In this document: piece after piece, positions 15,571 through 22,089 of the stretch
How the letters are laid out: each line of letters starts with the position of its first letter
Numbering within the stretch: the first letter of the stretch is position 1
Source: Escherichia phage ph0021
Direction: 5' to 3' (one strand)
DNA length: 64,000 nucleotides
Sequence record: OP557970.1
Notes under the pieces: model-generated
The model's input: only the letters and a program-made list of their open reading frames with translations
What the model was told of the DNA's origin: nothing
Database searches by the model: none
Translations under genes and position numbers: made by a program

Positions 15571-16137
15571 TTATTTGCTTAGTTTAGTTATTATAGCTTC
15601 TGCGGCAGCTTTTAGCTTAGATGCGGTGTTAATACGATTTTTAATTTCAGTATACGCATCGCCAAGAACATCAAGGCTATCGGAATAAACACTTACACTA
15701 TTGCGTTCGCTATTTGAAATAGAACCTTTAGTTTTGCGATCAAAATCGGTGTACACGTCTTGAAGATCACGGGCTGCCTTCTTTGCATCATCCAATGCAT
15801 CAAGAGCTTTATTCAAAGCATTAACATATTTTTTAGTGTCGAACATATTCTTAGAAATTTTGACAGGTGCACGTTCAGGAGTAGCTAAGGCAGATTTAGG
15901 AAGAACCTGTTTGCCAGATGCCAGTTTCTTAGAAATTTTGAAAAACGCTTTATTGAAATTATTTTCTTGACTCATCGTAAAAGAACTATTATCAATGTTA
16001 TACATTTCAATAGCTTTAGCTTTCCACTTAAGAAAATCGCCACGGTCTTTTGGGTCCAAGTGGAAGAATACTTTAGTAAGATCTGCTTCAGATGGTAATT
16101 TTGCTGCTTCGGTTAAAAATTCGGCGTAGGTTTTCAT
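15571..16137 (-). CDS. Internal-protein-like protein with capsid-targeting leader
   Basis: 188 aa; N-terminal MKTYAEFLTEA (LxE motif) as in T4 internal proteins. Confidence 0.55.
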   Translation of the reverse strand: MKTYAEFLTEAAKLPSEADLTKVFFHLDPKDRGDFLKWKAKAIEMYNIDNSSFTMSQENNFNKAFFKISKKLASGKQVLPKSALATPERAPVKISKNMFDTKKYVNALNKALDALDDAKKAARDLQDVYTDFDRKTKGSISNSERNSVSVYSDSLDVLGDAYTEIKNRINTASKLKAAAEAIITKLSK

Positions 16138-16218
16138 TTAAAATCCTTGAAATAATTTATTGGTTATTAATTATTTATCACGTTGTTATATGTAACAGCA
16201 TTCTCCGAGCGATTCAAA

Positions 16219-16247
16219 CTAAAAAGCCCCAACCTTTTGGTCGGGGC
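16219..16247 (-). terminator. Rho-independent terminator
   Basis: Minus strand GCCCCGACC-AAAA-GGUUGGGGC followed by UUUUU after the stop at 16256. Confidence 0.5.
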
Positions 16248-16255
16248 TAAGAATG

Positions 16256-16525
16256 TTATTTGATTTGTTTAGCAGACCAAATGCGGTCTTTGATGATTTT
16301 TTGGAGGTCTTCAACATACTCTAGGTCATGAGCATGTGGATTATCTTTGAAACTATGAGCTCGCGCAAGTTTCTGGCCTTCGGTTTTGATTACTAAAAGC
16401 TCTTTAAGGATAGCTTCATATTTAGCGATAATTCCTTTAACGATATTTTTTTTCTTGTGCAGCTTTAGGATCTGCTTTAGGAGCAGGTTTACCCGAAGCC
16501 TTTGCAAAAGCAGCGCCAGTAGCAA
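16256..16525 (-). CDS. Downstream reading frame of a split internal-protein-like gene
   Basis: ORF in the +1 frame relative to 16437..16730; continuous with it if the A8 run at 16446-16453 is read as A7. Confidence 0.35.
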   Translation of the reverse strand: MLLALLLQRLRVNLLLKQILKLHKKKNIVKGIIAKYEAILKELLVIKTEGQKLARAHSFKDNPHAHDLEYVEDLQKIIKDRIWSAKQIK

Positions 16526-16730
16526 CTAAACTTTTCCAGGCCATACTAACTGCATTTCCCGTAAATCCTTCTGCTTTCATGTCGCGAGCAAACTGGAATC
16601 GTGATTCGTCAGAAGCATCTTTATAGGAATATTTACCCGCTGCAATGGCTGCTTTTGCGACAGCTTGAATTTCGGTGCTAGATGCTTCATTTAACACCGC
16701 TTCATTTAAAAATTGAGCATATGATTTCAT
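16437..16730 (-). CDS. Internal-protein-like protein with capsid-targeting leader (possibly truncated by frameshift)
   Basis: 97 aa; N-terminal MKSYAQFLNEA; stops 3 codons after an A8 homopolymer; late promoter 30 nt upstream. Confidence 0.5.
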   Translation of the reverse strand: MKSYAQFLNEAVLNEASSTEIQAVAKAAIAAGKYSYKDASDESRFQFARDMKAEGFTGNAVSMAWKSLVATGAAFAKASGKPAPKADPKAAQEKKYR

Positions 16731-16760
16731 CTTATTTCCTGTTTTAATTCGTGGATTTAA

Positions 16761-16768
16761 TATACTAC
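16761..16768 (-). promoter_or_regulatory. Late promoter (TATAAATA)
   Basis: Minus strand TATAAATA about 30 nt upstream of the ATG at 16730. Confidence 0.5.
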
Positions 16769-16797
16769 TGTATTTATACTAAAAAGCCCCAACCTTT
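16769..16797 (-). terminator. Rho-independent terminator
   Basis: Minus strand GCCCCGACCGAAAGGUUGGGGC followed by UUUUU, at the 3-prime end of the noncoding RNA region. Confidence 0.5.
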
Positions 16798-17110
16798 CGG
16801 TCGGGGCTAAGCCTTGCGGCAACCTTGTCGTGGTTCCACCTGCTAAGGCAAGTGTTTGTACGAAACGCCGGGATTCGAACCCGGTTATTAAGTAGTTGAC
16901 GCTACTCAATATTTTTAAAAGGCCATATCTCGACCATATCCGAACGTTCCGTCAAAAACGCTACTCGGCTTACGGCAAAGATATTTCCTCGAATCGATAA
17001 TTCGGTGCGCCGTTTCTGCTGTGATAGTAAAGAGCCAGAACACAGTAAAACTGTGGGAGGAAACTATACTCCAGGGAACATCAGTCCGACGACTTACCGG
17101 TAGCGACCCG
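16798..17110 (-). ncRNA. Candidate stable structured RNA(s) downstream of tRNA-Arg (position of T4 species 1/2 RNAs, rnaC/rnaD)
   Basis: About 310 nt with no ORF; tRNA-like T-arm CCGGGTTCGAATCCCGG, several hairpins, terminator at 3-prime end. Confidence 0.35.
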
Positions 17111-17115
17111 GTTTC

Positions 17116-17466
17116 TTAATATTCTTTTAAAGAATCAATATATTCACGGCGTTTACGCCACAAATCAATTGCTTCATACGCGGATTCAGCATTTCGAATT
17201 AGCCGGCATTTATGTAAAGACTTATGATTTTGATATTGTGTAGATAACGGAATTGTATCTAAAAGGTCTTTACGATCAAAATATTCGTAACCATCTAAAC
17301 CAAATGAACGATTTTTGAGAAATTGCCAATGACCATATTCGTTTTCGACATAAACATAATCTGCATGCTGATAAAGCAAATTAATTACACGTTCAGAAAT
17401 AACAGTATCATTATGATTAAAATAGAATGTTAAATCATGAACTACTAAATAAACATTACCTTTCAT
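17116..17466 (-). CDS. Hypothetical protein (116 aa) within the tRNA region
   Basis: ORF between tRNA-Arg and the noncoding RNA region. Confidence 0.5.
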   Translation of the reverse strand: MKGNVYLVVHDLTFYFNHNDTVISERVINLLYQHADYVYVENEYGHWQFLKNRSFGLDGYEYFDRKDLLDTIPLSTQYQNHKSLHKCRLIRNAESAYEAIDLWRKRREYIDSLKEY

Positions 17467-17484
17467 ATTTTCCTCACTTATAAT

Positions 17485-17560
17485 TGGTCGAGGCAGTAGG
17501 GATCGAACCTACGACCTAGGACTTAGAAGGTCCTTGCTCTTCCTTCTGAGCTATGCCCCG
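17485..17560 (-). tRNA. tRNA-Arg (anticodon UCU), CCA encoded
   Basis: Hand-folded cloverleaf: 7-bp acceptor, GCUCAG D-arm, anticodon loop CUUCUAA, T-loop GGTTCGATC, discriminator A. Confidence 0.8.
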
Positions 17561-17564
17561 TAAT

Positions 17565-17640
17565 TGGGGTGACCGATGGGAGTCGAACCCATGACTACGA
17601 GAATCACAATCTCGAGTTCTACCAACTGAACTACGGCCAC
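17565..17640 (-). tRNA. tRNA-His (anticodon GUG), CCA encoded
   Basis: Hand-folded: anticodon loop UUGUGAU, discriminator C73; no G at -1 encoded (U at -1). Confidence 0.7.
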
Positions 17641-17754
17641 ATTAATACCTACTCCAACAATCAAGATGTCTTCACACGAAATTAAGAGAAGAGTGATCAG
17701 TTCAACCCCTATAATCGCGTCAAGTAGATATTAATGTGACAGTTGTCACAAATT

Positions 17755-17829
17755 TGGCGGACGTGATAGGATTCGAACCTATAACCAATCGCTTAACAGG
17801 CGATCGCTCTGCCATTGAGCTACACATCC
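17755..17829 (-). tRNA. tRNA-Asn (anticodon GUU), CCA encoded
   Basis: Hand-folded: anticodon loop CUGUUAA, discriminator G73, T-loop GGTTCGAAT. Confidence 0.75.
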
Positions 17830-17833
17830 AAAT

Positions 17834-17920
17834 TGGTGGGGAGTGATGGAGTCGAACCACCCGAGTCGCAATGACAATGGATTTACAGTCCACACCGCTA
17901 CCTCTACGGGATAACTCCCC
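17834..17920 (-). tRNA. tRNA-Tyr (anticodon GUA), type II, CCA encoded
   Basis: Hand-folded: anticodon loop CUGUAAA, long variable arm, discriminator A73. Confidence 0.75.
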
Positions 17921-17929
17921 AAATTAATT

Positions 17930-18004
17930 TGGTGGCCCTGGGTGGAATTGAACCACCATCTGGCGATTATGAGTCGCTTGCTTGAACCTTCCAGCTACAG
18001 GGCC
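17930..18004 (-). tRNA. tRNA with CAU anticodon (Ile by analogy to T4, or Met)
   Basis: Hand-folded: anticodon loop CUCAUAA; sits next to tRNA-Thr where T4 has tRNA-Ile. Confidence 0.7.
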
Positions 18005-18005
18005 T

Positions 18006-18081
18006 TGGTGCTGATTGACGGAATCGAACCGCCGACATCCTCATTACAAGTGAGGTGCTCTACCTACTGAGCTAAATCAGC
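18006..18081 (-). tRNA. tRNA-Thr (anticodon UGU), CCA encoded
   Basis: Hand-folded: anticodon loop CUUGUAA, 7-bp acceptor GCUGAUU/AAUCAGC. Confidence 0.8.
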
Positions 18082-18086
18082 AAAAC

Positions 18087-18176
18087 TGGCGGAGGCGATA
18101 GGATTTGAACCTATGAGTCGCCGGAGCGACTGCCGGTTTTCAAGACCGGTGCATTAAACCACTCTGCCACGCCTCC
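18087..18176 (-). tRNA. tRNA-Ser (anticodon UGA), type II, CCA encoded
   Basis: Hand-folded: anticodon loop CUUGAAA, long variable arm, discriminator G73. Confidence 0.8.
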
Positions 18177-18178
18177 AG

Positions 18179-18252
18179 TCTCCGTGGCAGGATTTGAACC
18201 TACGACATTCTGCTCCCAAAGCAGACGCTCTACCAAACTGAGCTACACGGAG
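18179..18252 (-). tRNA. tRNA-Pro (anticodon UGG), CCA not encoded
   Basis: Hand-folded: anticodon loop UUUGGGA; 3-prime end abuts tRNA-Ser 2 nt away (Pro-Ser dimer as in T4). Confidence 0.8.
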
Positions 18253-18262
18253 TAAATTGAAT

Positions 18263-18336
<74 letters not shown>

Positions 18337-18341
18337 AAATT

Positions 18342-18428
18342 TGGTGCGAGAAGTGGGACTCGAACCCACAAGGAAATCATTCCGCAGCATTTTAAGTGCT
18401 GTGCCTTTACCAATTTGACCATTCTCGC
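18342..18428 (-). tRNA. tRNA-Leu (anticodon UAA), type II, CCA encoded
   Basis: Sequence GCGAGAATGGTCAAATTGGTAAAGGCACAGCACTTAAAATGCTG... recognised as T4-like tRNA-Leu. Confidence 0.85.
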
Positions 18429-18429
18429 G

Positions 18430-18502
18430 CTGGGAATAAAGGACTCGAACCTTTGCATCTAGCAGTCAAAGTGCTATGCCTTACCAACTTGGCTAATTCC
18501 CA
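18430..18502 (-). tRNA. tRNA-Gln (anticodon UUG), CCA not encoded
   Basis: Hand-folded: anticodon loop CUUUGAC, U1-A72 pair, discriminator G73; 3-prime end abuts tRNA-Leu (Gln-Leu dimer as in T4). Confidence 0.8.
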
Positions 18503-18588
18503 ATTATTAACAAAGGCTCTTAAGCAAGAACCCTTGATGATAGAGGGTATTAATCAGTACGATATGAGTTAATAATAACAAATAATTC

Positions 18589-19104
18589 TTAAAGCAAATT
18601 AAACATTTTAACGGTCGGCAAAACAATTTCTTCTTCTATATAAGAGTATTTAACACTCTCAACTACACGCAAAAAATCATAATCATAATACTCAGAAGCA
18701 TTACCTAAAATATTAATAAGTCCTTCAAGCACTTTATTACCATTCACAAAAAATAAGTCAAATACACGTTCTTCATCTTCTTCAGATTTATTACCAAGAT
18801 CAACTTCTATGCGAAAGACCTTTTTAATGAATTCTGGATAAAGCTGGTCTGAGAACAGTCCTTCAACCAAGTATTCATAAATAAAAAGAGATTGCTCGCT
18901 GAACAAACCATTACCGCAATAGCGCTCAATTTTAGTACTAGAATATCTGCTTTTAAATTTCTTTAAAAGATACTGAAATTGTAAGATTTCATGCTCTTCT
19001 ACGCCAAACAGTGTTTTAGTTTTATAGTTGTCACCATCATTTTCCCAGGTAGTGACATCAATTACGTAACCCTGCGGAATTGTAGTACCTAAACAAATAT
19101 TCAT
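18589..19104 (-). CDS. Hypothetical protein (171 aa)
   Basis: ORF in the variable block between the tRNA cluster and the ipI-like gene. Confidence 0.5.
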   Translation of the reverse strand: MNICLGTTIPQGYVIDVTTWENDGDNYKTKTLFGVEEHEILQFQYLLKKFKSRYSSTKIERYCGNGLFSEQSLFIYEYLVEGLFSDQLYPEFIKKVFRIEVDLGNKSEEDEERVFDLFFVNGNKVLEGLINILGNASEYYDYDFLRVVESVKYSYIEEEIVLPTVKMFNLL

Positions 19105-19394
19105 TTGCTCACCATATTAATGTAAGTATATTTAATACATTCAAGACCCAAAGGATTCTTGAAAATATCATATTCAAGAGGACCTTTTTCCGTTTCAATA
19201 AAGAAATCAAAGTTAACTGTGTTAAATTTACGGTCTTCCTTCACTAATTTAACTTGAGAAGATGAACGGTCAATGTAAACCTTTTCAACTTCAAAACATG
19301 TTAAAATGCCATAATCATCAATCAAGGCTTTAGCTGCTTCTTGATCATATTTATATCCATTTTCAATGGATGATACTTTCGCATAAAGAATCAT
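19101..19394 (-). CDS. Hypothetical protein (97 aa)
   Basis: ORF with 4-nt overlap to the downstream ORF. Confidence 0.5.
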   Translation of the reverse strand: MILYAKVSSIENGYKYDQEAAKALIDDYGILTCFEVEKVYIDRSSSQVKLVKEDRKFNTVNFDFFIETEKGPLEYDIFKNPLGLECIKYTYINMVSK

Positions 19395-19396
19395 TA

Positions 19397-19795
19397 TCAG
19401 CCTTCATCAACAATAGTGTGAGTATTGGCATTTACGATTTGCCACCAGTCAAAGCGATTAGAACCCATCGGTTTGTTTTCATTTTCTTTGATAATGTCAC
19501 GGAGTTCATCTTCAGAGAATGCTTTAGCGATTAAATCGGTATACCCACCACGGGGATAATAATTATCACCTGCAAACAAAAGGAAATTTACCTTCCCGGA
19601 AGGAACATACGCTTCCTTAGGATACTTGTTTCCTGCGTGGTCAACCACTTCAATATAACGGTAAGGAATATCGGTTCTTTCAACCCATTGCCATGCCGCT
19701 GCAGGGGAATCGAAAGCATCTACACCTAAACGATTATCTTCATCTTTAGACGGATTATTTTCGTAATCCGCATATACATAATATTCAACGTTCAT
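19397..19795 (-). CDS. Hypothetical protein (132 aa)
   Basis: ORF; no motif recognised. Confidence 0.5.
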   Translation of the reverse strand: MNVEYYVYADYENNPSKDEDNRLGVDAFDSPAAAWQWVERTDIPYRYIEVVDHAGNKYPKEAYVPSGKVNFLLFAGDNYYPRGGYTDLIAKAFSEDELRDIIKENENKPMGSNRFDWWQIVNANTHTIVDEG

Positions 19796-19980
19796 TATTC
19801 ACCTTTAGAAATTTTATCCATAACGATAGCAATTAAACCAATTAAAAATGCTACTACAAGTGAAAAAACATTTTCTGCCGTAGTCAATAATCCGCATATA
19901 AATCCAACAAACATTGAAAAACTGAAAGCGGAAGCAGAAATTGCAATAGCAACATTTCGAATTAATTCACAACGTTTCAT
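19795..19980 (-). CDS. Small membrane protein (61 aa)
   Basis: ORF 19795..20121 trimmed to ATG at 19980 after GAGGAG; hydrophobic core AIAISASAFSFSMFVGFICGLL...LVVAFLIGLIAIV. Confidence 0.5.
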   Translation of the reverse strand: MKRCELIRNVAIAISASAFSFSMFVGFICGLLTTAENVFSLVVAFLIGLIAIVMDKISKGE

Positions 19981-20008
19981 TTTATTCTCCTCAGTAGTTG
20001 ATAGGGTA

Positions 20009-20038
20009 ATAGTATCACTACCCCATCTAAAAGTAAAC
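20009..20038 (-). promoter_or_regulatory. Early promoter (GTTTAC, 18 nt, TACTAT) with -10 inside an imperfect inverted repeat
   Basis: -35 at 20033-20038 abuts the ipI-like stop; inverted repeat GATAGGGTA/TACCCCATC flanks the -10. Confidence 0.45.
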
Positions 20039-20272
20039 TTATTTTTTACGAAAAATTGATTTATTTTCTGCTGCCCATTTTTCAATAACTGCAGCAGGAC
20101 CAGTAACAACAATTTTATCACCGTAATCTTCTGCGGCGAGTTGACCGAAATTATCTAATGCATCACGAAGAACTCCATGAGGCATTTCACCCATTTTATC
20201 TTTCTTGCCAGTGTAAATAAACTCAACTTTTACATCAGCAGTTTCAGCAATAAATTCTTGGTAAGTTTTCAT
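20039..20272 (-). CDS. Internal protein I-like (capsid-targeted, candidate injected anti-restriction protein)
   Basis: 77 aa from ATG at 20272; N-terminal MKTYQEFIAE, the canonical T4 internal-protein leader; ipI position upstream of 57B. Confidence 0.6.
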   Translation of the reverse strand: MKTYQEFIAETADVKVEFIYTGKKDKMGEMPHGVLRDALDNFGQLAAEDYGDKIVVTGPAAVIEKWAAENKSIFRKK

Positions 20273-20306
20273 TTTGATTTCCATTTGGTTTTGTTTTGAT
20301 AGGGTA

Positions 20307-20336
20307 ATAGTATCACAACTAAAACCCTATGTAAAC
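20307..20336 (-). promoter_or_regulatory. Early promoter (GTTTAC, 18 nt, TACTAT) with inverted repeat around the -10
   Basis: -35 at 20331-20336; 7-bp inverted repeat ATAGGGT/ACCCTAT flanks the -10. Confidence 0.45.
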
Positions 20337-20348
20337 AACTTTGTGAAA

Positions 20349-20606
20349 TTATTTTAAATCTTCTAATCGTTTCTTCATCTTAGAACCATTTTTAGCAATT
20401 TCTCCTGCATCGGAGCATAATGCTAAAAGTGCTTTAACTTTAGTTTGGTCTCCTTTAAAAGATGAAGGATCGACCGCAGCAGCAAGTTCTTTAATACGAG
20501 AGAAAAGACGCTCAGCTTCAGCTAAAGCCATTCCAAGCTTTACTTCCATACCGTGGGAAGATTCAGTGATAGTAGTTTTTGTAACAAACTCTTTGAAAGT
20601 TTTCAT
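20349..20606 (-). CDS. Internal-protein-like small protein
   Basis: 85 aa; N-terminal MKTFKEFVTKTTITE resembles the internal-protein leader. Confidence 0.5.
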   Translation of the reverse strand: MKTFKEFVTKTTITESSHGMEVKLGMALAEAERLFSRIKELAAAVDPSSFKGDQTKVKALLALCSDAGEIAKNGSKMKKRLEDLK

Positions 20607-20636
20607 TTTATTTTCCTAATTAATTTTGATGAGGTA

Positions 20637-20666
20637 ATAGTATCACTACCTCATCAGCACGTAAAC
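20637..20666 (-). promoter_or_regulatory. Early promoter (GTTTAC, 18 nt, TACTAT) with perfect 9-bp inverted repeat around the -10
   Basis: GATGAGGTA at 20628-20636 and TACCTCATC at 20646-20654 flank the -10 at 20637-20642. Confidence 0.45.
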
Positions 20667-20678
20667 AACTTTGTGAAA

Positions 20679-21363
<685 letters not shown>

Positions 21364-21364
<1 letters not shown>

Positions 21365-22089
21365 TATAGTACCTTTAGTGTATTTTTAATTTTAGAAAAA
21401 AGTTCTTCAAGAGAACCATCGTTTGTAATTACTAAATCGCCATCACGAATTGGCAATCCAGCTTCTGTAATATGTGTATCATTGGATTTTTGACCAGGAC
21501 GAACTACATGAATTACTGTAGCACCCATCGCCCTAGCCGCATCCATTTCATGATCTTGACGGGTATCAGGAACGATATAATAATCATAACCTGAGTTAAA
21601 TTTATCAAGATAATCTAAAGCAAATAATTTTACCCAGTACATGCGGTCGAAGTTATTAACAATCAAATCCGTACCTAGGGCTTGCATCAGACGACGGACT
21701 GACCATTGATCTTCAATATTATTTATAACGTCAATAATCTTGTTAAATGCTACGGAATTAACTGATTCTTGTCCTTCGTCATCAAAAACAAACACACTTT
21801 TAATTGGGCTTTTACCATTAAGATAGCAAAATGCTTGTTCCATAATCGTGATTACTTCTAATTTAGTTAGATTTAAATTAGTCTCACGATCATAGTCAAT
21901 TCCTTCAAACTCTTTACGAGTTAAGCAAGGATAGTCGGTATTTGCAGCAAATACTCCCCATGCATAAGCCAATGCATCCTTAATAGGACCAGCAAGTTGG
22001 TATTTAACTGCAGAATAATTGCTCATGATAAAATCAGCAGTAGTATCTTTTCCACTACGCTTTACACCGCTTAAAAAGATTAGTTTCAT
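21364..22089 (-). CDS. 1: Deoxynucleoside monophosphate kinase
   Basis: 241 aa; P-loop GVKRSGKDT; T4 gp1 length and position. Confidence 0.9.

Follow-up and report, generated by a model that had tools for sequence, protein, structure and literature searches.

The closest described relatives of the genes analysed here are trna.2, trna.3 and trna.4 of bacteriophage T4 (NP_049746-8; UniProt P13324, P13323 and P13322), which lie between tRNA-Gln and the internal-protein (Ip) locus. In T4, trna.2 and trna.3 give rise to early RNA and early protein and trna.4 to early RNA (PMC9697503, supplement), and all three are classed as 'Not Fit' by CRISPRi-ART (PMC11879866, supplement) and as 'Non-essential' by HIDEN-SEQ (bioRxiv 10.1101/2025.11.20.689424, supplement). 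The latter study used defence-rich isolates as hosts for its T4 screen, and no trna.2-4 hit is mentioned in its main text (bioRxiv 10.1101/2025.11.20.689424). T4 Trna.2 is furthermore enriched in a DRT1 pull-down (PMC13275509). A further set of relatives, RB32ORF135c, RB69ORF151c, 44RRORF127c and T2_138 (phrog_2290), comprises hypothetical proteins of non-T4 T-even phages, with the RB32 and T2 members located at the same site upstream of the tRNA array. Annotations of T4 and related phages have listed these genes as conserved hypotheticals for decades, and the layout of the locus is available in public records. Our literature search retrieved no study addressing the function of trna.3 or trna.4, and none of the four genes is mentioned in the Silas-lab papers on accessory genes and injected proteins.

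Two other systems are relevant for comparison. The T-even internal proteins (IpI, IpII and Ip5-Ip9) are injected anti-restriction proteins, i.e. accessory and host-range related; they neighbour the trna.x genes on the same strand and share with them a promoter/hairpin repeat, but are far more polymorphic and possess a capsid-targeting N-terminus, whereas the trna.x products of T4 are early and non-virion. Comparative genomics by Burroughs and Aravind and work on NARP NAD reconstitution have reportedly described phage RNA-repair and NAD/ADP-ribose neighbourhoods, which we take to include Pnk/PNKP, Rnl, RlaP, HD, Thg1, NADAR, YAcAr/cpYpsA and NAMPT with NMNAT-Nudix. The phrog_2290 protein is not among these components as described and is unlike all of them in sequence and fold, yet its distant homologues occur within such neighbourhoods, in many cases right beside a component gene or with start and stop codons that overlap.

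In the window, i.e. the complete stretch of 64,000 nucleotides analysed from Escherichia phage ph0021 (OP557970.1), the region between the tRNA genes and the Ip locus is, judged from its sequence, an early Tequatrovirus operon of four genes (Table 1). The four open reading frames of 171, 97, 132 and 61 residues are present exactly as the earlier note described them, on the minus strand in the ORF list of the window, in the order trna.4 - trna.3 - trna.2 - ORF171 reading toward the tRNA array. Each start (N-termini MNICLGTT, MILYAKVS, MNVEYYVY and MKRCELIR) is preceded by a Shine-Dalgarno-like sequence on inspection, and stop and start codons overlap or nearly overlap at the junctions (TAATG, TGAtaATG and ATGA); hence, the four genes form one translationally coupled unit. 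The mechanical ORF of trna.4 extends to a GTG at 20121, but the ATG preceded by GAGGAG yields 61 residues, as in the T4 orthologue. Order, strand and position are shared with T4 trna.2, trna.3 and trna.4, which belong to the same PHROG families (93%, 65% and 100% identity, respectively); the T4 locus differs in carrying another allele of the Trna.3 N-terminal domain and in lacking ORF171, the extra gene of the window between trna.2 and tRNA-Gln. ORF171 itself shows no material difference from the RB32 and T2 members of its family.

Table 1 Features of the four-gene interval and its flanks (window coordinates).
Feature	Position	Strand	Basis or description
11-tRNA gene array, directly downstream of the four genes	17485..18502	-	ARAGORN, Rfam
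86-nt spacer between ORF171 and tRNA-Gln, with 11-bp hairpin	18503..18588	-	RNA fold
ORF171, 171 aa	18589..19104	-	'WENDGD' family (phrog_2290; RB32ORF135c/RB69ORF151c-like)
trna.2 orthologue, 97 aa, acidic	19101..19394	-	phrog_2023 match
trna.3 orthologue, 132 aa	19397..19795	-	two small alpha/beta domains
trna.4 orthologue, 61 aa	19795..19980	-	membrane protein, two transmembrane helices predicted; topology read from sequence as N-in/C-in hairpin
T4-type early promoter-like element, GTTTAC-N14-GTGATACTAT	20009..20038	-	read from sequence
Two internal-protein cassettes: 81 aa, phrog_8111; 85 aa, Ip5-like, phrog_3499	20039..20694	-	

The promoter-like element directly follows the stop codon of the upstream Ip gene and is part of a promoter/hairpin repeat family with three copies (19996-20066, which contains it, 20294-20364 and 20624-20694). 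The record of phage ASO78A labels this element as a T4 early promoter that overlaps a terminator hairpin. A generic sigma-70 scan gave promoter matches at background level, without enrichment. At the other end of the operon, the tRNA array begins on the same strand after a spacer that is 96% conserved in T4, folds at -19.7 kcal/mol (z = -1.97) and is a predicted terminator according to the ASO78A annotation; a generic terminator scan, itself at background level, found none in this spacer. An Rfam scan of 16000-20800 returned tRNAs only. In T4, transcription of the tRNA genes starts at promoters upstream of the trna.x ORFs, and for the window we likewise predict an early promoter and co-transcription of the four genes with the tRNAs.

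The neighbour previously labelled 'ipI-like' is not an IpI orthologue, but the phrog_8111 cassette followed by the Ip5-like phrog_3499 cassette, each with a copy of the promoter/hairpin repeat in front of it and each encoding a capsid-targeting start (MKTYQEFIxE-like; MKT[YF][QK]EF). The content of this locus varies between phages, with ipI in T4, Ip7-Ip9-Ip5 in RB32, ip5-ip7 in T2 and five cassettes in VR20. The hypervariability that the earlier note ascribed to the region applies to the adjoining internal-protein locus, which is polymorphic, but not to the four-gene block, in which Trna.4 is 100% identical to that of T4. Real variability resides in the internal-protein cassettes beside the block. 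The block is only moderately variable, through presence or absence of single genes (trna.3 is missing in T2 and trna.2 in VR20) and divergent Trna.3 N-terminal alleles. The proximity to internal proteins and Acb1 noted before is confirmed, as the block adjoins the Ip locus and Acb1 (57B), a 2H-phosphoesterase, lies 1.6 kb upstream of ORF171.

All four genes are under purifying selection, with dN/dS between 0 and 0.35 in comparisons to T4, T2, RB32, G53 and VR20. For trna.4, dN is 0 against T4, T2 and RB32 at dS 0.10-0.16, trna.2 has a dN/dS of 0.07-0.22, and trna.3 displays the highest values in the block (0.26-0.35). PHROG profiles match the four proteins with E-values from 6e-35 to 9e-68, and hundreds of phage records contain annotated genes that are identical or nearly so. 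Among 609 Escherichia-named records carrying gp1, trna.4 is found in 543, trna.3 in 517 and trna.2 in 511, and ORF171 is found in 229 of about 609. No family of established function was recovered: scans against Pfam (a copy without the PF26894 model), NCBIfam and PADLOC gave nothing significant for any of the four proteins, and PDB sequence and profile searches with ORF171, Trna.2 and Trna.3 yielded no match below E 0.01, so that the initial impression of proteins without recognisable motifs is upheld for all four in the domain libraries and for the three soluble ones in the PDB. Profile, PDB and fold searches detected no similarity to a known enzyme, RNA-repair or anti-defence family, and ORF171, Trna.2 and Trna.3 give no PDB sequence match to Acb1/Acb2, Tad, Gad, anti-CRISPRs, Ocr, Dmd, Ip proteins or other anti-defence proteins of solved structure. 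Comparison of gene content across T-even phages, as the earlier note had suggested, identifies three of the genes as T4 orthologues, none with a characterised housekeeping function; its proposal of host-takeover or anti-defence roles is therefore not contradicted.

Trna.4 (phrog_1692, E 6e-35 over 61/61 positions; T4 NP_049748) occurs in 779 phage records, in 428 of them at ≥99% identity, and its hydropathy profile displays two hydrophobic stretches, from which a two-helix inner-membrane protein is predicted. Trna.3 matches phrog_1411 over its full length (E 1e-55) and combines a variable N-terminal half (46% identity to T4) with a C-terminal half (85%) that holds a conserved 'YYPxGG...DWWQIV' domain, the block NFLLFAGDNYYPxGG...FDWWQIVNA being invariant in the homologue alignment; the label PF26894 is precomputed on Trna.3 homologues. 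The two halves have a similar secondary-structure pattern, but an internal tandem duplication finds no support in a sequence shuffle test, in which 121 of 500 shuffles scored as well. Trna.2 (phrog_2023, full-length, E 1e-48; 799 phage records) is 92.6% identical to its T4 counterpart (NP_049746) and differs only in the last ~9 residues, a consequence of a 520-bp deletion in T4.

The same deletion, with its junction at window positions 18609-19128, explains the absence of ORF171 from T4. The family (phrog_2290, full-length, E 9e-68) is otherwise widespread, with members in about 570 phage records and in hundreds of metagenomic contigs, and is present in T2 (86.5% identity), RB32 (96.5%), Mosigvirus, Klebsiella and Aeromonas straboviruses and many unrelated large-phage contigs; source records name the cluster members 'hypothetical protein' only. 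In Aeromonas phage avDM1 and in Bragavirus, homologues occupy the same gene 1-to-tRNA interval; those of Klebsiella phages lie inside the tRNA array. From this position shared across genera, ORF171 is probably ancestral at the site in Straboviridae and was lost by T4. Since T4, the model phage, has deleted the gene, the family has never been sampled by T4 genetics.

The predicted ORF171 structure is confident (pLDDT 93) and without a fold match in the PDB; a weak GFP match in the PDB search (DDGNYKT) was discarded as a coincidental beta-turn. A Pfam scan of 104 family members likewise returned nothing. Two motifs stand out, a W-E-N-D-[G/A]-D hairpin at residues 20-25 and a C-terminal R-V-[V/F]-[E/D] at residues 146-149. 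The hairpin motif is retained in BLAST-derived homologues of 28-36% identity, and the family is conserved down to 25% identity; in the metagenomic set, which was gathered by word-seeded searches, motif invariance is for that reason partly an ascertainment effect. The three soluble proteins of the block have pI values of 4.5-5.0, and the ORF171 family is acidic throughout (median pI 4.5), a uniform acidity equally compatible with a protein inhibitor or a nucleic-acid mimic.

We surveyed the gene neighbourhoods of 46 ORF171 lineages defined at ≤60% identity, which are not fully independent, as the set includes nine or ten straboviruses and several jumbo-phage loci with shared distances of ~1.7-2 kb. 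A co-oriented tRNA gene is located within 5 kb in 21/46 lineages and within 200 nt in seven. ORF171-tRNA distances are skewed toward short values overall (KS p = 9e-6 against a uniform +/-10 kb expectation, with kinship between lineages remaining), and outside strabovirus-like lineages a tRNA lies within 200 nt in 3/13 cases (p = 0.002, same expectation). Adjacency to tRNAs is nevertheless not universal, with no tRNA within 10 kb in about half of the lineages. A control family derived from a degenerate DNA pattern had a tRNA at 1/11 loci, all in small phages, which makes it a poor control. Genes of the RNA-repair and NAD guild, with identities confirmed by Pfam, recur next to the homologues: RNA ligase is linked in five of the 46 lineages, directly adjacent in two (overlapping in L016, 8 nt away in L071), RlaP in two, among them L016, and PNKP in one (L061, 115 nt). 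Further neighbours are YqeY (overlapping in L070, 0.56 kb away in L017), YAcAr (34 nt, L053), NMNAT-Nudix (69 nt, L072), NAMPT (0 nt, L063), NADAR (1.6 kb, L070) and, in Klebsiella phages, gp30.3 (1 nt). Neither a tRNA nor a guild gene is near ORF171 in 12/46 lineages. In the window, neither Pnk nor RNA ligase is found next to ORF171, and the only related genes in its vicinity are the tRNA array and Acb1 (57B). Large phages pack tRNAs, RNA ligases, NAD genes and small accessory genes into the same early regions, and the enrichment may therefore reflect insertion tolerance rather than shared function.

Based on these observations, we infer that the four genes serve accessory host interaction rather than replication or morphogenesis, and tentatively favour an early operon of such genes in which ORF171 acts on RNA ends or NAD/ADP-ribose-type nucleotides. 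ORF171 would then be a small acidic enzyme or ligand-binding protein, with the tip of the W-E-N-D-[G/A]-D hairpin as a putative DxD-type metal site complemented by R146 and the G64-N65 loop. We hypothesise that it takes part in tRNA repair or in NAD-linked counter-defence, where the protein may be part of a phage island for tRNA repair and NAD salvage. The bolder version, namely that ORF171 founds an undescribed family with a new fold, a small acidic enzyme or a sensor of nucleotides whose hairpin metal site would be E-x-D-x-D, and an overlooked component of tRNA-repair/NAD counter-defence that would, for example, process a repair intermediate or an NAD-derived signal, we consider doubtful. 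If true, it would explain why the gene travels with tRNA arrays, RNA ligase, PNKP, RlaP, NADAR, YAcAr and NAMPT in unrelated large phages. The acidic site, the confident model unlike any solved structure and the recurrent gene linkage together make ORF171 a testable candidate for a so far missed factor with which phages withstand immunity that cleaves tRNA or depletes NAD.

The earlier note regarded the genes as candidates for host takeover or anti-defence, which is plausible given T4 early expression and dispensability, the Trna.2-DRT1 link and the ORF171 neighbourhoods, but unproven, with no similarity to known anti-defence proteins. In its generic form, each protein would block one host immunity protein in the manner of Ocr, Dmd, IPI or anti-CRISPRs, and the closeness to tRNAs and RNA repair would be incidental. 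Early, dispensable trna.x genes in T4, the low pI of the soluble proteins and the ORF171 family, recovery of Trna.2 with DRT1 (PMC13275509), the fast N-terminal domain of Trna.3 and a position beside Ip anti-restriction cassettes and Acb1 all agree with this alternative. We nonetheless judge it somewhat unlikely, as an invariant six-residue acidic motif plus an invariant arginine is rare in inhibitors of fast-evolving defence proteins, and that of ORF171 spans Escherichia, Klebsiella, Aeromonas and Proteus-group phages and metagenomic contigs at 25-30% identity. Moreover, Trna.4 and Trna.2 are almost invariant over hundreds of phages, unlike arms-race genes, and the HIDEN-SEQ main text names no trna.2-4 hit on defence-rich isolates (bioRxiv 10.1101/2025.11.20.689424). 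It is improbable that the proteins are instead quasi-housekeeping helpers in maturation, modification, charging or stability of the phage's own tRNAs, since these mature without ORF171 in T4, without trna.3 in T2 and without trna.2 in VR20, the trna.x genes are dispensable in T4, half or so of the ORF171 lineages have no nearby tRNA, and acidic proteins are unusual among RNA binders. Such a function would be in line with the predicted shared transcription unit and orientation with the tRNA array, an orientation recurring for ORF171 in many phages, with T4 tRNA transcription from upstream of the trna.x ORFs and with the vicinity of YqeY, a GatB-like, tRNA-related domain, in L070 and L017.

That the four genes encode further packaged internal proteins, injected with the DNA, is suggested by the adjoining Ip cassettes and the common promoter element, but is highly improbable: the capsid-targeting start of both neighbouring Ip ORFs is absent from all four, Trna.4 is a predicted membrane protein, and T4 Trna.2 and Trna.3 are early products (PMC9697503) whereas head components are late. 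Scarcely credible is finally that the ORFs are non-functional or selfish filler retained by linkage alone, compatible as this may be with the lack of a known function, dispensability in T4 and presence/absence polymorphism. Selection and conservation largely refute this view already, in particular the dN/dS values up to 0.35 at most, the absence of amino acid replacements in trna.4 and the deep conservation and confident predicted fold of ORF171, and Trna.2 and Trna.3 are detected as proteins in T4 (PMC9697503).

Under the favoured reading of an accessory host-interaction operon, Trna.3 may bear a fast-evolving N-terminal specificity domain on a conserved C-terminal scaffold domain, and Trna.2 could contact DRT1-type defence proteins. 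Both are cheap to follow up, Trna.3 for the combination of a widespread ~62-residue domain with a variable one and Trna.2 for its published link to DRT1.

We show that the four genes form an accessory operon that is early, conserved and non-essential, evolves under purifying selection and reads toward the tRNA array. The earlier note had placed four ORFs between the tRNA cluster and the ipI-like internal-protein (Ip) gene, and they are found at exactly the positions it gave, each preceded by a Shine-Dalgarno sequence. All four are under purifying selection, with dN/dS of 0-0.35 across the block and, for trna.4, dN = 0 at a dS of 0.10-0.16 versus T4, T2 and RB32; the selection data exclude that the ORFs are junk. 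Given the junctions TAATG, TGAtaATG and ATGA, the genes constitute one translationally coupled operon. All genes of the region lie on the minus strand, transcribed in the order gene 1, 57A, 57B/Acb1, two Ip cassettes, the four ORFs and the tRNAs.

Features in and around the operon (window coordinates)
Feature	Position	Strand	Length
57B/Acb1	20679-21137	-	
Ip cassette, first in transcription order	20349-20606	-	
Ip cassette, second in transcription order	20039-20284	-	
Promoter/hairpin repeat, three copies	19996-20066; 20294-20364; 20624-20694		
trna.4 orthologue	19795-19980	-	61 aa
trna.3 orthologue	19397-19795	-	132 aa
Conserved C-terminal part of Trna.3	19400-19594		~62 residues
trna.2 orthologue	19101-19394	-	97 aa
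ORF171	18589-19104	-	171 aa
ORF171-to-tRNA-Gln spacer with hairpin	18503-18588		
11 tRNA genes	18502-17485	-	
phrog_3355 ORF	17116-17466		116 aa
rnaC/rnaD-like stretch	16832-17116		
ORF with capsid-targeting-like motif	16437-16730		97 aa
ORF with capsid-targeting-like motif	15571-16137		188 aa

The element GTTTAC-N14-GTGATACTAT is located at 20038-20009, just past the upstream Ip gene's stop codon, within a 5-9-bp stem and as part of a ~45-70-nt repeat, one copy of which precedes each Ip cassette and one the trna.4 operon. The annotation of phage ASO78A lists this element as a T4 early promoter that overlaps a terminator-like hairpin, and the RB32 record names the repeat a 43-bp direct repeat flanking the Ip cassettes; it is probably a recombination substrate for cassette shuffling. 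Window 18400-20700 and 21364-22089 are 100% identical to GenBank OR584013.1, 'Pseudomonas phage PsgM02F', and many Escherichia and Shigella Tequatrovirus genomes match 18400-20700 at 97-98% identity. Apart from its listed host, Pseudomonas coronafaciens, OR584013.1 is the genome of an ordinary Tequatrovirus of the E. coli type; a second 'Pseudomonas' record, PV654520.1, is likewise near-identical, and the host labels of both look doubtful.

PHROG profiles match all four genes (phrog_1692, phrog_1411, phrog_2023 and phrog_2290), and the annotated T4 and RB32 records identify the first three as trna.4, trna.3 and trna.2. Judged by their sequences, which carry all the defining features, these three belong to their T4 families and ORF171, the 171-aa gene, to phrog_2290. 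Database names are 'hypothetical protein' throughout, and none of the ORFs belongs to any characterised functional family. T4 Trna.4 is 100% identical to the window protein, Trna.2 92.6%, with differences confined to the last ~9 residues, and Trna.3 65% (46% in the N-terminal and 85% in the C-terminal half), whereas ORF171 has no T4 counterpart. In the alignment, window 18609-19128 is missing from T4 (NC_000866, 72.5-72.9 kb), a clean 520-bp deletion that takes out the end of trna.2 together with almost the whole of ORF171; the body of T4 trna.2 is thereby fused to the leftover 3' end of ORF171, which explains its different tail and stop codon. In T2, RB32 and Mosigvirus G53 an ORF171 homologue directly precedes the tRNA genes, and in Gaprivervirus VR20 one small ORF separates the two. 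Bragavirus and Aeromonas phage avDM1 carry the homologue farther upstream, still within the gene1-to-tRNA interval, and in Klebsiella phages it lies within the tRNA array. Since homologues occupy this interval in other genera, T4 probably represents the derived state. The genes of the earlier note were already catalogued as hypothetical, and the ORF171 family is the part worth pursuing.

The same note had called the block variable. This holds for gene content (T4 lacks ORF171, T2 trna.3 and VR20 trna.2) and for Trna.3, which falls into three identity classes, but the variation is modest compared to the adjacent Ip locus, and the block is less variable than claimed. Cassette number and kind differ in every phage examined: ipI in T4, Ip7-Ip9-Ip5 in RB32, ip5-ip7 in T2, five cassettes in VR20, and a phrog_8111 Ip followed by an Ip5-like one in the window. 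By tblastn against 50,697 phage records, with gp1 as denominator (1547 records, 609 of them Escherichia-named), trna.4 is present in 779 (543), trna.3 in 760 (517), trna.2 in 799 (511) and ORF171 in 572 (229). In 428 records the identity of Trna.4 is 99% or higher, and ORF171 has the widest phylogenetic spread of the four, including 141 Klebsiella and 53 Aeromonas records.

In T4, time-resolved omics assigns early RNA to all three trna.x genes and early protein to trna.2 and trna.3 (PMC9697503 supplement). All three are 'Not Fit' upon CRISPRi-ART knock-down (PMC11879866 supplement) and 'Non-essential' in HIDEN-SEQ transposon mapping, with 23/25, 39/40 and 16/17 insertion-tolerant sites (bioRxiv 10.1101/2025.11.20.689424 supplement). 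The sole functional hint for the T4 orthologues is a pull-down with the defence reverse transcriptase DRT1, in which two T4 proteins, Trna.2 and Inh, were enriched (PMC13275509).

The profile search for ORF171 returned 258 metagenomic proteins, which are 118-200 aa long and all lack a Pfam domain. In a 104-sequence alignment G12, E21, N22, D23, D25 and R146 are invariant, and Y13, T18, W20, G24, Y27, T29, F50, G64, N65 and V147 at least 90% conserved, an invariance that is partly ascertainment as the metagenomic searches were seeded by exact words. BLAST-derived homologues of 28-36% identity from Klebsiella, Bragavirus and Aeromonas AP1 phages retain W-E-N-D-[G/A]-D and R-V-[V/F]-[E/D]. The AlphaFold model is confident (pLDDT 92.8, pTM 0.86) and places the motif at the tip of a β-hairpin (residues 12-21 and 25-35); the chain then continues through a helix and a variable helical insert to a closing strand (147-156), with R146 just before it. 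The model has no fold match among solved structures, and the BFVD search returned only uncharacterised phage proteins (Klebsiella JD18, Stenotrophomonas Mendera and IME-SM1, Vibrio X1, Aeromonas phiAS4).

Dereplication of 68 homologue loci at ≤60% identity left 46 lineages, not fully independent, of which 21 have a tRNA gene within 5 kb, 10 within 1 kb and 7 within 200 nt, in every case on the same strand. Where a tRNA lies within 10 kb, distances are strongly skewed short versus uniform expectation (KS p = 9e-6); in non-strabovirus-like lineages, 3/13 have one within 200 nt (p = 0.002) and 8/13 within 2 kb (p = 0.001), the sole control family for tRNA distance being from small phages. Counting a tRNA within 5 kb or a tabulated, Pfam-confirmed gene within 10 kb, 34/46 lineages are included.

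Protein-coding neighbours of ORF171 homologues (L numbers denote individual loci)
Neighbour	Lineages	Spacing
RNA ligase (RNA_ligase + PHA02142 OB domain)	5	overlapping in L016; 8 nt in L071
RlaP	2	overlapping in L016
PNKP	1	115 nt in L061
HD_4	2	2.1 kb in L016
YAcAr, plus cpYpsA	4 + 1	34 nt in L053
NADAR, plus T4 gp30.3 family	3 + 5	1 nt in Klebsiella phages
YqeY	3	overlapping in L070
NAMPT	4	0 nt in L063
NMNAT-Nudix	2	69 nt in L072
DUF7275	6	5 nt in L037

L016 also carries an AAA_33 kinase and Thg1. In several unrelated contigs (L072 9235-13208, L063, L059) the homologue adjoins a NAMPT and NMNAT-Nudix pair, a combination known as a phage NAD+-reconstitution pathway; in L072 a YAcAr gene lies upstream. 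A ~310-350-aa DUF7277 + DUF7275 protein occurs near homologues in six lineages (adjacent in L037, 9061-9984; L076, 6228-7268; also L022, L028, L042 and L066).

We propose that the four genes may have a part in interaction with the host, the anti-defence role suggested in the earlier note being a candidate. In ORF171, three features taken together point to a putative catalytic or ligand-binding site rather than to a protein that binds a single fast-evolving protein of the host: the invariant E-x-D-x-D hairpin tip and Arg, the unmatched fold, and the RNA-repair genes, NAD/ADP-ribose genes and tRNA arrays that repeatedly lie directly beside its homologues. Membership in a tRNA-repair and NAD counter-defence guild is a tentative assignment, more probably wrong than right, and the boldest reading, a new family of enzymes or sensors within the RNA-repair and NAD islands of phages, has a similarly low probability. 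In large phages tRNAs, RNA-repair, NAD and small accessory genes share early regions, which weakens the neighbourhood reading, and the acidity of the family throughout (median pI 4.5) would fit a generic inhibitor, a role about as likely as the guild one.

Beyond host interaction, action in phage-tRNA maturation would agree with an operon reading toward the tRNA array, but is less likely because T4, T2 and VR20 each do without one of the genes. Packaging as Ip-like proteins is unlikely, as a capsid-targeting sequence is absent from all four ORFs.

In agreement with the earlier remark that the ORFs lack recognisable motifs, Pfam, NCBIfam and PADLOC scans of all four gave no significant match, nor did PDB sequence and profile searches with ORF171, Trna.2 and Trna.3. 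The Trna.3 model comprises two small α/β domains (pLDDT 86, pTM 0.50). In an exhaustive HMMER search its C-terminal part emerged as a widespread family with the pattern [F/Y]LLF.G..YYP.GG..D...DWWQIVD..T..IV, so Trna.3 consists of a conserved domain and a fast-evolving N-terminal one. Its 556 cluster representatives (threshold E ≤ 1e-3) are for the most part standalone proteins of 60-75 aa, with one fusion to an HTH_31 domain, and 'YYPxGG...DWWQIVD' has no model in the Pfam copy scanned. A shuffle test gave no support for a tandem duplication in Trna.3. Trna.4, with two hydrophobic helices, a short TTAEN loop and charged ends, reads as a putative N-in/C-in hairpin.

The tRNA array (Gln, Leu, Gly, Pro, Ser, Thr, Met/Ile-CAU, Tyr, Asn, His and Arg) contains no segB homing endonuclease and is closer to the T2-type arrangement than to the eight tRNAs plus segB of T4. 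An 11-bp hairpin (AAGGGUUCUUG/CUUA/AGAGCCUUU) in the ORF171-to-tRNA-Gln spacer is kept in T4 and annotated as a terminator in one relative; as it lacks a good U-tract, it could instead mark where the tRNA precursor is processed. A G+C-richer stretch that lacks a long ORF shares 90.7% identity with rnaC and rnaD, the small stable RNAs of T4 (species 1 and 2 RNA), for which Rfam holds no family, and the phrog_3355 ORF lies between it and tRNA-Arg. On the other side of the array, two ORFs with an N-terminal capsid-targeting-like MK[TS]YA[EQ]F motif probably encode IpIII- and IpII-type internal proteins.
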